From contig CAYWKB010000003.1 of assembly GCA_964459225.1 (NCBI GenBank), forward strand, positions 1 through 40,453: a DNA stretch of 40,453 nt, written 5' to 3'. The position numbers were made by a program, and so were the translations under genes. Origin of the DNA: an uncultured Candidatus Saccharibacteria bacterium. Its GTDB lineage: Bacteria; Patescibacteriota; Minisyncoccia; Phycocordibacterales; PALSA-1337. Below the pieces are notes generated by a model, which did not search any database, was not told where the DNA came from, and was given only the letters and a program-made list of their open reading frames with translations. Every line of letters starts with the position of its first letter. Position 1 is the stretch's first letter. Of the stretch, positions 5,585 to 40,453 are shown piece after piece.

Positions 5585-8500
5585 TTACTCAGTCTCTTCG
5601 ACATTGTGAGCTTTTTTGATAAGTTCGACATCAAGTGCTAGACCACGTAATGACTTTAGAAGCACATTAAATGATGCTGGAAGATTTGGTTGCTTTAACT
5701 TTTCTCCCTTAACAATAGAATCAAATGCTTGTGAACGACCTTGTATATCATCTGACTTGATAGTTAGAATTTCACGCAAAGTATGTGCAGCTCCATGACC
5801 CAAAAGTGCCCAGACTTCCATTTCTCCAAATCTCTGTCCTCCTCCTTGTGCCTTTCCTCCAAGAGGCTGTTGAGTAATAAGTGAGTAAGGTCCGATTGAA
5901 CGCATATGTATCTTATCTTCAACCATGTGATGAAGTTTCAGGATATACATATATCCAACTGCAATTGGTCTATCGAATTCTTCACCTGTTCTACCGTCCT
6001 TTAATTTCATTTTTCCACTTGCATCAAAACCTGCTTTTACAAGTTCTTCTTTTATTTCTATATCTGTTGCTCCTGTAAATGGTGGAACTATAGCTTGATA
6101 TCCAAGTGTATGTGCTGCAAGACCAAGGTGTAACTCTAATATCTGTCCTAGGTTCATACGTGAAGGCACTCCGAGTGGTGTCAAAATAACATCCACAGGT
6201 GTTCCATCAGCCATGTATGGCATATCTTCTTCTGGAAGTATTCTTGAAATAACTCCTTTGTTTCCGTGACGTCCTGCAAGCTTGTCTCCGACTGAAACAT
6301 TTCTAAGTTCAGCAACTTCAATGTAAATCTTTTTGATTATTCCTGATTCTAGCTTGTCTCCCTTTTCTCTTGAAAATACTTTAACAGAAATAACACGTCC
6401 GCGCTTTCCTCCTTCCATTCTCTTTGAAGTATCTTTTACATCTCTTGCCTTTTCACCGAAAATTGATCTTAATAGTCTTTCTTCTGGTGTAAGTTGTGTC
6501 TCACCCTTTGGTGAAATCTTACCAACCAAGATATCTCCTGGACGAACCTCAGCTCCAACGCGTACTATTCCGTCTTCTGCTAGATTTTTTAGTTTTGCTT
6601 CTGCAACATTTGGAATATCGCATGTTGTTACTTCTGGACCTAACTTTGTATCACGTACATTAACTACGAATTCTTCGATATTAATTGAACTGAATTTACT
6701 ATTTTTAACTACTCTTTCTGAAAGAATAATAGCGTCTTCATAGTTATTTCCTGACCATGACATAAATGCTACTAGCATGTTTTGTCCTAATGCTATTTCA
6801 CCATTATCTGATGTTGATGTATCTACTAGAACATCACCTTTTTTAACCTTATCTCCTAGATTTACTATTGGTCTTTGATGGAAAGCTGTGAATCCATTTG
6901 TTCTTGAAAAATGAACAAGATTGTATTCCTTTTTACCATTTTTCTTACCTGTAAATACAACTTTATTTGCATCTACATAAGTTATTTCACCGTCTTCTGG
7001 TGCCAATATTATTCTTCCTGTATCTACAACTGCCTTCTTTTCTATTCCTGTTGCAACAAGTGGTGCTTCTGGAATAAGACATGGAGTTGCCTGTCTTTGC
7101 ATGTTTGAACCCATGAGTGCACGGTTTGCATCGTCATGATTTAGGAAAGGAATAAGTGATGTACCTATTGAAAATGCTTGATTTGTTGAAACGTCTATAT
7201 AATCAACTTCACCTGCCTTTGCTAGTCCTGGCTTACCATTTATACGTACTTCAACTTCATCTGCTGTTATCTTTCCTGATTTATCATATGGAATTGCAGC
7301 ATGAGCGATACGGAAGTTTTCTTCCTCTAATGCATTCATATATTGAATTTCATCTGTGACCTTTCCATTTTTAACTTTTGCATATGGAGTTTCAATCATT
7401 CCGAAATCATTTATTCTTGCAAAAGTAGAAAGACGAAGCACAAGTCCAATGTTTGGTCCTTCTGGTGTATGTATTGGACATAGACGACCGTAGTGTGATG
7501 GGTGAACGTCACGAACTTCAAATCCTGCACGCTCTCTTGTAAGACCTCCTGGACCTAGAGCAGTGAGCAATCTTAGATTTTCAATTTCTGAAAGAACATT
7601 TTCCTGTCCCATGAACTGTGAAAGTTGATTTGTTGTGAAAAATTCCTTTATACGAGCTTGAAGTGGTCTTGGGAAAACGAAATTAACAGGCAAAGTAACG
7701 TCTGGCTCAACTGTAGACATTCTGTCCTGAATGTTTCTCTTCATTTGTGTCATACCTACACGTAGTTTTTGCTGTAGCAATTCACCCACATATCTTGCAC
7801 GACGTGATCCTAGATGATCTATATCATCTTCAACTGCATCTGGAGTATTGTTTAGACTTACTATATGAGTAACTATTGTGGCGATATCATCTGCTGATAT
7901 TGTTCTTCTTTCTAATTCCTTTTCATCCATTGATTTATTAAATCTCTTATTGAAACGGAATCTACCAACTTTATTGATATCATATCTATCAGGATGGAAT
8001 ATATTTCCAATAAATTCACGTGCATTATCTGCTGTAGCCAAGTCTCCATCTCTTAATCTCTTGTGTATTTCGATATATGCATCATCAACTGTCTTTGCAT
8101 GATCCTTTGCAAGTGTTAGCTCTACTGCCTTTTTTGCCAATTCATCACCTTTAAAGAATTCAAGTATTGAAGCATCAGTATTTGCTCCGAGTATTCTCAT
8201 TAGAGTTGTGATCGGGAATTTCCTCTTTCTATCTATACGTACATATACTGTTCCATCAGAATCTGACTCTATTTCCATCCAAACACCGCGAGCTGGGATG
8301 ATTTTTGCGCCAAAAAGATTTTTACCCTTTGTTTCATTAAGAGTGAAGAAAATACCGAATGATCTTGCAAGTTGTGCAACAATAACTCTTTCAATACCAT
8401 TTATAATGAAAGTTCCGTGATCTGTCATCAAAGGTAAATCAGCAAGGAACATTTCCTGCTCTTTTGTTGAATCTAAAAGCTTATTGCGAAGCTTTACCTT

Positions 8501-36238: not shown

Positions 36239-37123
36239 TCATAATGTTCTTTCTGCCTCTAGAAATTCGTCCAAATCTCCCTCTAAGACTTTTTCAACTT
36301 GCGATGTTTCTACATTTGTCCTATGATCTTTGACCATTTTGTATGGATGAAGTACATACGATCGTATTTGATTTCCCCATTCTATTGATGTTGTCTTGCT
36401 TATATACATTCCTTTTTCTTTTGCTTTTCTTTCATCTTCCATTTGTTTAAAAAGTTTGCCTTTCAAAATATCTAATGCTTTTTCTTTATTTTGTGCTTGT
36501 GATCTTTCGGATGTGACATGTACTGATAGACCGGTTGGCTTATGTACTATTCTAACGGCAGTCTCTCTCTTATTTACATTTTGTCCTCCTGGACCTCCTG
36601 ATTTTGCTATTGAAATTTCAATATCTTTTTCAGGAATTTCAAAATCAGCGCTATTTACTTTTTCAAATTTTGGAATTATTTCAACCATAGAAAAAGAAGT
36701 ATGACGCAATTGCTTTGCATTAAATGGTGAAATCCTCACAAGTCTATGAACACCGCTTTCATTTTTCAATGTGCCGTAAACATTTTTACCTGAAATCTCA
36801 ACTGTAATATTTCTATATCCTCCATGATCATTTGTATGTTCATGCAAAATTTCCATACCCCATCCTTTGTTTTCTGACAATTTTCTATACATTCTAAATA
36901 GTATCGCTGAAAAGTCTTCAGCATCATCTCCTCCTGCACCAGAAAAAATAGTCATAATAGCATCTCCTTTATCAAATTTACCTATACCTTCGAGTGCATC
37001 CTTTTGCTCCTGCAATTCCTTTATCATTGATTGAGCTTTTTCTGAATTATTCCAAAAATCAGGCATTTGCATTGCCATTTCAATTTCAGAAATTCTTTCT
37101 ATTATTTTCTGCTTTGCTTCCAT
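36239..37123 (-). CDS. prfB: Peptide chain release factor 2 (short, 294 aa; no programmed frameshift)
   Basis: SPF specificity motif (RISPFNA), [22 protein letters not shown]. Confidence 0.95.
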
Positions 37124-38143: not shown

Positions 38144-38203
38144 AAATTATTTATTGTCTAAAAGTATAACAAAATTATAAATTGAAGTCATATAAATCAA
38201 CTG

Positions 38204-38489
38204 AGCCGTTGTCCGGGATTGAACCGGAGACCTCGTCATTCACATATACCTTTACTTCGTTATATTATACACAACTTATAAAAGGGTTAGACTGTATCTT
38301 GCGCATATCTTTTGATTTAGCGTCCCTTGTCAGTCGTTCGGGCGACAATATTAATATTACTTATCGCCACGGTCTTACCCATTTGTATTGCATGGACTTT
38401 AACCGTAATTCGGGTTTCATCATTTCGTTTCCAAAATGAAGGGCTATCGGATAACCAATGACGTGCTCTACCAACTGAGCTACAACGGC
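38204..38489 (-). tRNA. tRNA-Thr(GGU), split by an intron (exon 1 38489-38454, exon 2 38240-38204)
   Basis: Joined exons give GCCGTTG...CGTCA-TTGGTAA-TGACG...TCCGG-TTCAATC-CCGGA-CAACGGC-T, a perfect cloverleaf. Confidence 0.93.
38241..38453 (-). ncRNA. Group I self-splicing intron (213 nt) between tRNA positions 36 and 37
   Basis: P1 GGU|UAU-CCG-AUAGCC with a U-G pair at the 5' splice site; terminal G; P2 with GAAA loop; P4 UACGGU/ACCGUG; P7 elements CGAACGACUG and AAGAUACAGUCU; no ORF inside. Confidence 0.88.
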
Positions 38490-38619
38490 TTTCTACTTTT
38501 CCATACTAACACATTTATAGGGATGTGTTTACTGTATTTTGAGTTCTAGTTTAAATTATGACCATAAAAGAGATGTACTTAAGCACAAAACATGAAAATT
38601 ATACTGATACTCTACAATA

Positions 38620-39609
38620 TCATGAATCAGTAATTTTCTTTTTTAACTTCCAGCCGTTGCCATGACTTAAAAGACCAAGATACGACTCGACAACTTCCGG
38701 CTTTTCTTGAGAATCTTTGATTTTCTTGAACATACGATTTTTTGTCGTTGTCCGTATCACTCGATGATATGGAAAATGAACCCAGCCAAGGAAATCTACA
38801 CCCGACGAAGATGTCTTAATAAACACTTTGTCTGGATGAAGAGATAATTTTAATTGCTCACTGAGAAAGCCCTGAACCTTAGGTAAGATTTCCATCAACG
38901 AATCTTTATTGTGTTGCATAATGACGAAGTCATCGGCATACCGAATATAATATTTAGCTTTGAGCTTGTGCTTTACAAACTGGTCAAATTCATTCATGTA
39001 AATATTTACCAAGAGTTGCGAGGTCAGGTTACCTAAAGGCAAACCCTTACCTGGACCAGTACTTTGAAAACTCTCAACAATGCGTTCAACAAGCCAGATC
39101 GTTTCCATATCATTAATATGTCGCTTGAATATTTCAATAAGCTTTTCATGATCAATAGATGCAAAAAACTTTCTAACATCACATTTCAGGACCCAGCATG
39201 CCCTGCTATTACTTTTTGACACTTTCATAACGAAATCATTGAATCGATTTAACGCACGATGTGTTCCTTTAAATTGTCGACAGGAGTAGGAATCATAAAT
39301 AAACTTTTTATCAAAATAGGGATATAAAATCCTGTAAATAGCATGGTGCAATAATCTATCTCGGACCGTAGCCTTGTGAATACTTCTCGGTTTCGGATCA
39401 CTTATCGAAAAAGCTTCGTATGCACCATGTCTATACATTTTTGTTCGCAGTTCCTCATGCAATTTGAAGATACTATGAGAGAGATTCAGAGAAAATTCAG
39501 CAACGTCCTTTTTAGATTTCTTGCCACATATAAATTCGGTCCACGCATCGCATAGATTTTTGATGGATATGATATTCTTATACTCATGACCCATACTAAT
39601 AAGGATCAT
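38620..39609 (-). CDS. DGR-type reverse transcriptase
   Basis: VRDRLLHHA, KCDVRKFFASIDH, GLPLGNLTSQ, YIRYADDF, GVDFLG; uninterrupted; in-frame starts at GTG 39636, ATG 39609 and ATG 39594. Confidence 0.95.
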   Translation of the reverse strand: MILISMGHEYKNIISIKNLCDAWTEFICGKKSKKDVAEFSLNLSHSIFKLHEELRTKMYRHGAYEAFSISDPKPRSIHKATVRDRLLHHAIYRILYPYFDKKFIYDSYSCRQFKGTHRALNRFNDFVMKVSKSNSRACWVLKCDVRKFFASIDHEKLIEIFKRHINDMETIWLVERIVESFQSTGPGKGLPLGNLTSQLLVNIYMNEFDQFVKHKLKAKYYIRYADDFVIMQHNKDSLMEILPKVQGFLSEQLKLSLHPDKVFIKTSSSGVDFLGWVHFPYHRVIRTTTKNRMFKKIKDSQEKPEVVESYLGLLSHGNGWKLKKKITDS

Positions 39610-39980
39610 ATTACCCCCCCCCCCGAGAATTACCACAGGTAATTCTCAAATCGAAAGAGACATATCGTTTTTGGCTCTCTATCTATCGTGATTTTCCGAA
39701 AGTCGAGCGGTATGGAATTGGAAACAAAATTGAACAGGCTTTTCTTGATGTACTTGAATACACATTCTGTCTTTCTTATCTCCCGCCTGAACACAAAATA
39801 CCGATATTGAACAAAGCCATCACAAAACTTGATATTGTGAAGTTCTTTGTGCAACTCGCATGGGAAAGTAAAATTATTCCAACTGATACATACTCGGACT
39901 TAATCGGAAGACTTGAGGAAATAGGGCGACAACTTGGTGGTTGGAAGAAGGGTTTGCAAGCAAAAACTCCCCGACCTTAA
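39586..39980 (+). CDS. avd: Avd-like DGR accessory protein (four-helix bundle), absent from the ORF track; the only plausible ATG is out of frame across a C11 tract
   Basis: Frame 39603-39980 reads ...PPPRELPQVILKSKETYRFWLSIYRDFPKVERYGIGNKIEQAFLDVLE...LDIVKFFVQLAWE...LEEIGRQLGGWKK...*; FPKxERYxIG and EIGRQLGGW are Avd/bAvd-like; ATG 39586 would join this frame with C12 or C9. Confidence 0.85.
39614..39624 (+). repeat. C11 homopolymer (G11 on the TR/RT strand)
   Basis: tta-ccccccccccc-gag read directly. Confidence 0.9.
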
Positions 39981-39989
39981 GCCGAGGAG
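39967..39989 (-). other. Hairpin immediately 3' of the TR, overlapping the avd stop codon
   Basis: Minus strand CTCCTCGGC-TTAAG-GTCGGGGAG (two G-U pairs, so it folds better on the TR strand) followed by TTTTT. Confidence 0.7.
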
Positions 39990-39999
39990 AAAACCAACA

Positions 40000-40122
40000 G
40001 TTTCGAGAGAACACCTGGTTGCCATCATCCCACCTGTTCGGGTTATCGACGGAGTTCGCATTGACGTTCCAGCCGTCGTCGTTCCAGTTCACGTTGACCG
40101 CGCGAAGCACCCCAGCGTTATC
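40000..40122 (-). repeat. DGR template repeat (TR) core; boundaries approximate
   Basis: 41 codons DNAGVLRAVNVNWNDDGWNVNANSVDNPNRWDDGNQVFSRN, 11 of them Asn (10 AAC, 1 AAT); GC-rich; next to avd and RT. Confidence 0.88.
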
Positions 40123-40343
40123 GTATACAAGATCATCTATATCACCGCCAGCCAAACCATGACCAGCTGAATTTTATCCGGGACATCAAAGTCCACTAAT
40201 CTCATATACCAATTCTTGTTATTTTTTTGAAGAGACTTTCCCCACTCTCACACAAGGCATACCCAGTGTGACTCTCGAGAAAAATATCCTAAGACCATGA
40301 CGTGAAAGCCGTAACCGTCACGTAACACATGATTTCGGAAATA

Positions 40344-40352
40344 AGTATAACA
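40344..40352 (-). promoter_or_regulatory. Extended -10 promoter candidate for the TR RNA
   Basis: TGTTATACT just downstream of the 40375-40410 terminator; no clear -35. Confidence 0.5.
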
Positions 40353-40368
40353 AGAGAAATTTAAATAT

Positions 40369-40410
40369 AAAAAATTGACCCCCAATCCGCCGAAGCAGAC
40401 TGAGGGTCAA
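40369..40410 (-). terminator. Strong intrinsic terminator of a gene ending at or beyond the right edge
   Basis: TTGACCCTCAGTCTGC-TTCG-GCGGATTGGGGGTCAA (16-bp stem, 3 G-U pairs, cUUCGg loop) followed by T6. Confidence 0.85.
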
Positions 40411-40453
40411 AGAATCCAAGGAACAAAGGATCAGGCTTGCGCCGGAGCCGAAG

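Follow-up and report, generated by a model that had tools for sequence, protein, structure and literature searches.

Organization of the cassette

The 40,453-nt window analyzed here, which is the whole stretch of DNA under study (positions 1 to 40,453 of the forward strand of contig CAYWKB010000003.1, assembly GCA_964459225.1), derives from an uncultured Candidatus Saccharibacteria bacterium and carries near its right-hand end a diversity-generating retroelement (DGR). The cassette consists of a reverse transcriptase (RT) gene, the gene avd, coding for an accessory factor, and a template repeat (TR), whose copy in the target gene, the variable repeat (VR), lies just outside the window. Its layout is not new, and its most interesting feature, apparently new, is a hypervariable simple repeat at the junction between avd and the RT gene. 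The main elements of the cassette are the following.

38620..39609, minus strand: RT gene, with an RVT_1 match and the motifs LGNLTSQ and YADD; its relatives, 58-94% identical, are all found in DGR cassettes
39586..39613, plus strand: predicted avd start codon (ATG 39586) with the short leader MTHTNKDHIT of the N-terminus; this stretch is antisense to the 5' end of RT
39614..39624, no strand assigned: C11 homopolymer, read as G11 on the RT strand; this is the hypervariable simple repeat between avd and RT
39615..39980, plus strand: avd body (PPPRELPQVILK...KTPRP, then stop), matching bAvd, with the Avd fold starting right after the run
40000..40116, minus strand: TR of 117 nt, located by alignment with the related loci L003 and L005; a VR copy lies just past the window end
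40365..40410, minus strand: terminator-like hairpin and T-run downstream of the target gene and VR, aligning to the region downstream of the L003 target gene
40411..40453, minus strand: 3' end of the target gene, matching the sequence downstream of the L003 and L005 VRs and contig X10; the window ends 26 nt 3' of the VR

The minus-strand open reading frame (ORF) at 38620-39636 encodes an RT of 329-338 amino acid residues (Pfam RVT_1, E-value 1.9e-27), the LGNLTSQ motif of which fits the pattern [ILV]GxxxSQ that we take to be typical of DGR RTs. The top NCBIfam model was that of group II RTs, with a score under the model cutoff, and the closest RT in the protein collection searched was 93% identical, the window RT itself having no entry. 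Translation is likely to start at ATG 39609 or ATG 39594, the latter being the better candidate, while GTG 39636 was rejected because it is located upstream of the G-run and within a hairpin. In contigs of three metatranscriptome runs, position 38802 is joined to position 39554, with 751 nt of the RT frame skipped; the shorter side of this joint measures only 29 nt, and the joint could represent either an RT-deleted variant or an assembly chimera.

L003 and L005, two loci whose RTs are 93-94% identical to the window RT, have TRs that hardly differ from that of the window. Their VRs differ from TR at 15 and 18 positions, respectively, every one of them a TR adenine. No VR was detected inside the window by an adenine-blind scan and a repeat search; in contig X10, from a near-identical strain, a VR of 111 nt that copies 40004-40114 with 18 mismatches begins 26 nt beyond position 40453. 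The RT and, by way of the relatives, the adenine-specific TR/VR differences place the locus among the DGRs, the TR/VR pair itself not being contained within the window. An exact 50-mer search of genome contigs aimed at extending the window gave no match, and the Logan contigs encoding a neighbouring protein ended near 38480.

Positions 40371-40453 showed twofold depth in the source runs, and, with 5 mismatches, 40371-40428 also matched another, long contig at its end; therefore, the 3' end of the target gene and its terminator are seemingly present twice in the genome, and a second target gene for this DGR could exist.

The initial annotation had placed TR and RT on the minus strand and avd between them on the plus strand, with avd overlapping the RT 5' region head-to-head and ending within a hairpin 3' of TR. 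Coordinates and profile matches bear this out: ATG 39586 of avd and ATG 39609 of RT delimit an overlap of 24 nt, in which the avd ATG is antisense to RT codons 6-8, and the avd stop codon (TAA 39978-39980) falls in the loop of the hairpin 39989-39967 on the minus strand. Such an arrangement, with TR and RT on one strand and avd between them on the other, corresponds to architecture B3, TR-(avd)-RT, to which 90% of Candidate Phyla Radiation (CPR) DGRs belong (Wu et al., 2018; NAR, PMC5758913). The published B3 elements and the present one have the same order, the same strands, the same host group (Patescibacteria) and adenine-specific TR/VR differences; the layout is identical, and the locus is an ordinary Patescibacteria B3 DGR.

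The same organization was found throughout the relatives. In a first set of 80 loci encoding RT relatives (58-94% identity), all of them in metagenome-assembled genomes of Patescibacteria, every locus that extended far enough upstream had an Avd homolog next to RT, on its upstream side and on the other strand, and in a second set, centred on a distant member, the layout recurred in 75/75. Together, the two sets provide about 150 related Patescibacteria loci with sufficient upstream DNA, all showing this layout, and 133 distinct junctions. TR lies just past the avd 3' end in these relatives, VR is situated 400-500 nt further upstream on the RT strand, and TR/VR mismatches are almost exclusively at TR adenines. 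The initial annotation had granted that the arrangement would be less novel were it the documented norm among CPR DGRs; it is that norm, both in the literature and universally in the related loci surveyed. The CPR and DGR literature searched contained no account of the junction repeat, of the structured leader 5' of TR or of the hairpin and U-run after TR; the search did not extend to Paul et al. 2017, reportedly the first survey of CPR DGRs.

The avd allele of the window lacks an in-frame start codon

The plus-strand frame at 39603-39980, proposed as avd in the initial annotation, does encode a member of the Avd family. It matches Pfam bAvd (PF22296) with 47.3 bits, above the gathering score of 40, and NCBIfam DivGenRetAVD (NF033474) with 60.5 bits, under the cutoff of 80, over profile positions 3-104 of 104. 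The NF033474 alignment begins at avd V13, and the Avd profile begins at P11-V13, directly after C11. A PDB search with the single Avd sequence returned no match.

As a complete gene, this frame did not stand, since it contains no ATG, GTG or TTG from the stop at 39600 to TTG 39807, and a start at TTG 39807 would cost half the Avd fold. A single ATG (39586) is found nearby, but with the C11 run at 39614-39624 in between it does not share the frame of the avd body in this allele: read through C11, that ATG gives MTHTNKDHITPPPENYHR and then the stop TAA 39640. The window allele consequently has no intact avd frame with a start. C9 or C12 would place ATG 39586 in frame with avd, and in the relatives with n = 9 (L036, L084, L086 and L098) the equivalent ATG is in frame. 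No conserved start codon was found downstream of the run, either in the window frame or in avd of the relatives. A TTG or GTG within an LPVL motif was tried as the avd start and rejected, with a same-codon fraction of 0.26-0.34 and no occurrence in the window subclade.

A frame-shifting repeat of fixed position at the avd/RT junction

The C11 homopolymer is the sole G/C run of at least 7 nt in the 40-kb window, and 63 of the 66 G/C runs of at least 8 nt in 793 kb of related loci sit at the avd/RT junction. A repeat was present in 129 of the 133 distinct junctions, with units of 1, 2, 4 or 7 nt, none of which is a multiple of 3. The repeat types, with the number of junctions in which avd is in frame with the upstream ATG, were distributed as follows.

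C-run of 7-14 (mode 9-10): 114 junctions, 25 in frame
Dinucleotide (CT, CA or AG on the avd strand): 13 junctions, 4 in frame
Tetranucleotide (GCCA): 1 junction, 1 in frame
Heptanucleotide: 1 junction, 1 in frame
No long repeat: 4 junctions, 4 in frame

Thus, avd was in frame in 31/129 repeat-bearing alleles (24%), the window allele being one of those out of frame, versus 4/4 repeat-free ones, an outcome whose probability would be about 0.003 were 24% the true rate. What is conserved is the position of the repeat, not its sequence: it keeps a fixed place with respect to the Avd N-terminus, while its distance from the RT start ranges from 4 to >50 nt. Because the spacing to the RT start varies to this extent, a Shine-Dalgarno function for RT is unlikely to be the sole role of the run. 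Poly-proline as the selected feature was also rejected, given that the proline codons are nearly always CCC and that other frame-shifting repeats substitute for the run in some loci. When 71 avd genes were aligned by codon, the first proline codons showed synonymous-codon identities of 0.99, 0.96 and 0.72, and the values of the first two point to selection on the nucleotide run, not on proline. In the repeat-free locus L138, the prolines are provided by mixed codons (ACC CCA CCA).

Two further elements flank the run.

39625..39647, no strand assigned: perfect 10-bp hairpin, GAGAATTACC-ACA-GGTAATTCTC, abutting the run and conserved in the closest subclade
39608..39613, minus strand: TAATAT, a -10-like hexamer and candidate RT promoter element, directly after the G-run on the RT strand

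Related hairpins occur beside the run in L039, L042, L056 and L065. The order of the two elements on the RT strand, hairpin and then G-run, resembles that of stem-loop-assisted transcriptional slippage sites and of terminators.

The contig of locus L063 encodes a second, distant RT (29% identity; 5988-7034), preceded by a same-strand Avd-like ORF whose ATG is located 18 nt after a hairpin ending in G10, and another G10 stands directly before a TATAAT and the ATG of a signal-peptide ORF (coordinates listed for these features: 3404, 5253 and 5988-7034). In these genomes, regulation by long G-runs close to start sites may be more widespread.

Variation of run length and the putative RT promoter

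Near-identical strains differed in run length at the contig level, from 8 to 12 in DNA contigs and from 8 to 15 in contigs of RNA runs, although the sequences on either side of the run were the same or almost the same. The six closest genome loci had runs of 8, 9, 10, 10, 11 and 11, whereas among 15 metagenome contigs the lengths were 8 (2 contigs), 9 (4), 10 (4) and 11 (5), with avd in frame only at n = 9; further DNA assemblies showed 9, 9, 10, 10 and 11. Three of the source runs yielded C11, and the fourth (X4) yielded both C11 and C12, its assembly breaking at the run; the X4 C12 contig has one extra C, and its avd is in frame. The assembly also breaks at the run in X5 and X15, in one of the two at about 30x depth. 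Finally, four metatranscriptome assemblies that share one single-nucleotide polymorphism profile carried runs of 8, 10, 12 and 15. With its fixed position, interchangeable frame-shifting units, length polymorphism and mixture of in-frame and out-of-frame alleles, the junction looks, at the level of sequence, like a simple-repeat contingency locus.

An avd allele with no in-frame start, in a window with no VR, could also belong to a decaying and inactive DGR, its avd broken by a frameshift and its target gone, and over half of the candidate DGRs examined by Wu et al. were indeed discarded as defective (PMC5758913). We regard decay as very improbable here, since VR lies just beyond the window end and about 76% of 129 cassettes that are otherwise intact carry this 'break' at the same repeat, with RT, the Avd body, TR, the leader and the hairpin all conserved. 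In addition, a sister sample of the same study contains a contig in which an extra C puts avd in frame.

On the RT strand, the pattern TAnnnT was found at offset 0 after the run in 27/60 junctions, versus 0-7 at any other offset, and the RT start codon mostly follows the run by 13-20 nt. These positions point to a promoter whose spacer contains the run and from which RT would be transcribed as a leaderless or short-leader mRNA.

A different role for the run has to be weighed, namely that it acts as a spacer or upstream element of the RT promoter, as a ribosome-binding stretch or as an RNA or protein motif and is no switch, its length variation being neutral or artefactual. Avd would then be made anyway, by RNA polymerase or ribosome slippage or from an unusual start codon. 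The purine-rich character of the RT-strand repeat (a G-run or GA repeats) in almost all junctions, directly before the -10-like hexamer, agrees with such a role, as does an in-frame fraction near chance, and transcriptional slippage could explain the four lengths in the RNA-run contigs of one strain. However, repeats of other types occupy this site in some junctions, among them (AG)n and (CA)n on the avd strand, one tetranucleotide and one heptanucleotide, and their units all shift the frame; every repeat-free junction is in frame. Moreover, the run holds a fixed position at the Avd N-terminus, whereas the RT start lies at widely differing distances from it, and DNA contigs differ in run length too. 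Weighing both sides, we hold it unlikely, though a serious competitor, that the run is not a switch.

A structured leader RNA upstream of TR

The interval between VR and TR, 233-435 nt long, is strongly conserved over 62 loci. It opens with a T-run, assigned to the target gene terminator, followed by TG-n-TATAAT in the consensus of the 62 leaders. The corresponding predicted elements of the window are listed below.

40344..40371, minus strand: promoter-like site for the TR RNA (TTTATA, 16 nt, TG-TATACT), the equivalent of the conserved TG-n-TATAAT
40123..40322, minus strand: structured leader RNA, based on RNAalifold covariation and a sub-threshold match to Rfam RT-9
40322-40301, minus strand: leader hairpin 1 (RNAalifold consensus)
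40284-40236, minus strand: leader hairpin 2 (RNAalifold consensus)
40232-40210, minus strand: A-rich single strand of the leader (RNAalifold consensus)
40209-40198/40134-40123, minus strand: 12-bp closing helix of the leader, enclosing hairpins 40194-40181 and 40167-40147 and ending 7 nt before TR

A promoter scan of the window returned 8 sites, not above the shuffled expectation of 5.5, and only the site conserved across loci is used here. The fold of the leader is supported by comparison of 58 sequences, for which RNAalifold predicted 47 pairs, 43 of them with compensatory double changes. In an independent count, 93.2% of cells were paired versus 67.4% in shuffled alignments (0/500 reached the observed value) and 39-51% in slid controls, in which partners were shifted by 1-3 columns. 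The covariation score of 0.787 compares with 0.29 for the shuffles and 0.12-0.21 for the slid controls. By this comparative evidence, the predicted structural RNA of this DGR class is the covarying leader 5' of TR.

The Rfam model RT-9 (RF03080) matched 40214-40325 with 31.9 bits in the window, and the leader of L003 with 33.5 bits, both under the gathering threshold of 46.1. The match is full-length and takes in leader hairpin 1, with its loop GGUUACGGCUU, together with the A-rich stretch, the second leader hairpin being an insertion relative to RT-9. At gathering thresholds, Rfam gave no DGR-related match, RT-9 included, in 11 related loci. The RT-9 motif was originally reported as 'found nearby to RT genes', with no role assigned, and RT-10, from the same work, is the spacer of the Bordetella element BPP-1 (Weinberg et al., 2017; PMC5737381).

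Two other RNAs were noted around the related DGR of locus L016, namely a LOOT RNA just downstream of its RT gene (7090-7207; 81 bits, above threshold) and, upstream, a type III hammerhead (376-430; 39.9 bits, sub-threshold).

The hairpin after TR and possible pairing across the TR flanks

The boundary between TR and avd is occupied by a second predicted RNA element.

39962..39989, minus strand: 10-bp hairpin CTCCTCGGCT-TAA-GGTCGGGGAG, then UUUUU, directly 3' of TR, with the avd stop in the loop

A G+C-rich hairpin with a U-run was present at this boundary, on the RT strand, in 62/72 loci, with the motif CUC...GAG and then UUUUGUUUUG, and its inner stem covaries, with 4-6 pair types per position. 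In the window, the G+C-rich hairpin at 39989-39967 is immediately followed by TTTTT, which is the sequence pattern of an intrinsic terminator. The element looks like an intrinsic terminator, an Avd-binding stem-loop or both; a 9-bp Avd-binding stem-loop just 3' of TR has been predicted for many DGRs, including those of CPR (Handa et al., bioRxiv 10.1101/2023.10.23.563531).

The A-rich strand of the leader is complementary to the interval between TR and this hairpin, for example AAAUGAAGA with UCUUCAUUU, and paired changes were observed in variant loci (ACGAAGA/UCUUCGU, AGAGACAGU/ACUGUUUCU, AUAAAGU/ACUUUAU and AUAAACA/UGUUUAU). Duplexes between leader and post-TR sequences had a mean energy of -6.6 kcal/mol for cognate versus -4.9 for non-cognate partners, and for most of the sequence-divergent variants the cognate partner ranked in the top 0-7%. 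RNAalifold predicted no long-range pairs between the TR flanks. Pairing of the A-rich leader strand with the TR-hairpin interval is suggestive only. In the Bordetella phage, the sequences flanking TR pair with each other, and the 3' spacer gives the primer and protein-binding sites (PMC7826257; bioRxiv 10.1101/2023.10.23.563531).

The avd interior carries no overlapping RNA constraint

The initial annotation equated the antisense strand of avd with the Bordetella spacer, so that the same DNA would serve as coding sequence and as structured priming RNA, and it suggested that sense/antisense transcription could regulate mutagenesis. The comparison is not without grounds: in the Bordetella phage, the 140 nt 3' of TR are essential and contain the priming site (PMC7826257), the ~35 nt that follow TR here are shared with the avd 3' end and conserved at the nucleotide level, and RNA-run contigs span TR, avd and the RT 5' end unbroken. 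These contigs, however, carry no strand information and may include DNA. Past the hairpin and U-run, synonymous variation in avd is at baseline, with synonymous-codon identities of 0.2-0.6 along the 71 aligned genes and exceptions at the two ends only, namely the first proline codons mentioned above and residues 119-122 (0.83, 0.73, 1.00 and 0.59), which face the U-run and the hairpin base. RNAalifold gave no consensus fold for the antisense avd strand of 25 diverse sequences (energy 0), and for 11 closer sequences it gave only a long-range pairing of -3.6 kcal/mol. A large covarying structure was instead located 5' of TR, and in 62/72 loci the terminator-like hairpin and U-run separate TR from avd.

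A structured 3' spacer of the BPP-1 type, with Avd-binding, priming and RT-binding elements, was accordingly not found in the antisense of avd, and its proposed equivalence to that spacer is not supported; we consider the whole model built on it quite improbable. As judged from sequence conservation, only ~35 nt of avd are shared with the predicted conserved RNA element 3' of TR, and the avd interior was shown to carry no overlapping RNA constraint. The idea that avd DNA doubles as coding sequence and structural RNA therefore survives for the last ~35 nt and the first ~10 nt of the gene and fails for its interior.

Proposed mechanism

On the minus strand, the predicted order of elements is the target gene with VR and its terminator-like hairpin, a TGnTATAAT-type promoter, a leader of ~200 nt, TR, and the 10-bp hairpin with its U-run. 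From the other strand, avd converges on the post-TR hairpin, and RT diverges from avd. The TR RNA would be a separate transcript, usually ending at the hairpin and U-run, and its leader would assume the roles of the Bordetella 'Sp', that is, binding RT and Avd, bridging the TR ends and priming. With the spacer roles taken over by the leader, the DNA 3' of TR would be freed to encode avd. RT would have its own promoter, the -10 element of which abuts the G-run. The avd frame would open at an ATG that lies antisense to the 5' end of RT and continue through the hypermutable repeat into the Avd fold, and slippage of the repeat would toggle Avd on and off. Slippage would probably also retune the RT promoter spacer, making mutagenesis itself phase-variable. 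Avd is required for complementary DNA synthesis in the Bordetella phage (PMC7826257), and an out-of-frame avd should therefore silence mutagenesis.

Taken as a whole, a B3 DGR with a separate TR RNA bearing a 5' leader, and with avd switched by slippage of the junction repeat, is the explanation that we somewhat favour. That DGR hypermutation is phase-variable through both the avd frame and the RT promoter spacing, as a form of random heritable bet-hedging, and that the DGR RNA is 'permuted', with its scaffold 5' of TR, is put forward more tentatively, as a possibility that falls short of probable.

Several points weigh against this explanation. Transcript ends, promoters and switching within populations are deduced from sequence and assembled contigs, in which homopolymer lengths can err by about one base (L003 is a hybrid long-read assembly). 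The in-frame fraction of 24% is near the 33% expected were the upstream ATG irrelevant, and a conserved RT histidine codon on the other strand partly forces this ATG. Were RNA polymerase or the ribosome to slip on the run, Avd could be made from every allele, and the length of the DNA run would then be no switch. The post-TR hairpin may be an Avd-binding stem-loop (bioRxiv 10.1101/2023.10.23.563531) and not a terminator, with read-through into avd antisense possible, and the pairing between leader and post-TR sequences is weak in some loci, including the window (-4.2 kcal/mol) and its subclade.

Neighbouring genes

Upstream of the cassette in window coordinates, a tRNA-like cloverleaf is encoded on the minus strand at 38195-38490, with acceptor, D, anticodon and T stems present and the anticodon loop split by an insertion of ~215 nt. 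It is probably a tRNA-Thr(GGU) with an intron. It was not called by ARAGORN, Rfam tRNA matched part of it only (19.7 bits), the fold had a z-score of -3.35, and no intron family matched. A release factor 2 gene with the SPF motif is located at 36239-37123 on the minus strand, called as 294 amino acid residues from ATG.

Comparison with known systems and significance

The BPP-1 element (avd-TR-Sp-brt) shares with the present DGR an RT, a pentamer-type Avd homolog, TR and VR, a hairpin directly 3' of TR and, less surely, pairing of the TR flanks. BPP-1 has avd upstream and on the same strand, and its structured spacer of 140 nt is located 3' of TR, whereas here a large structured RNA is predicted 5' of TR, avd is convergent with the TR RNA, and RT apparently has its own promoter. 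To our knowledge, the avd gene of BPP-1 contains no simple repeat.

With respect to the junction repeat, closer parallels are offered by contingency loci. In Haemophilus influenzae, a (TA)n repeat is placed between the divergent promoters of hifA and hifB, a position between divergent genes similar to the one described here. Like the polyG/C contingency loci of Campylobacter jejuni and Neisseria, the junction combines a run length that differs among near-identical strains with a mixture of on and off alleles. The G/C run, of 7-14 nt here with a mode of 9-10, sits inside the 5' end of a reading frame, and its modal length matches that of the C. jejuni polyG tracts, which is 9 (PMC3401435). Unlike the contingency loci of surface and restriction genes, the locus described here would control the accessory factor of a mutagenic retroelement, and its hosts are Patescibacteria. 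A literature search returned no paper linking DGRs to homopolymers, simple repeats or phase variation, with Paul et al. 2017, the main paper on CPR DGRs, outside its range.

The opposite orientation of avd, being the published CPR norm, is of little interest on its own. Of more consequence is the conserved structured RNA predicted upstream of the template in this very large DGR class: models and tools based on Bordetella look 40 nt upstream and 100 nt downstream of TR and so would miss the leader. Leader, TR and hairpin together would constitute a defined RNA of about 370 nt for reconstitution. In roughly three out of four of these cassettes, avd will be called wrongly or too short by automated annotation. 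If the proposed switch is true, the repeat at the avd start would be the first described built-in on/off control of DGR mutagenesis, and metagenomes could be screened directly for run length as an indicator of whether these elements are active or inactive.

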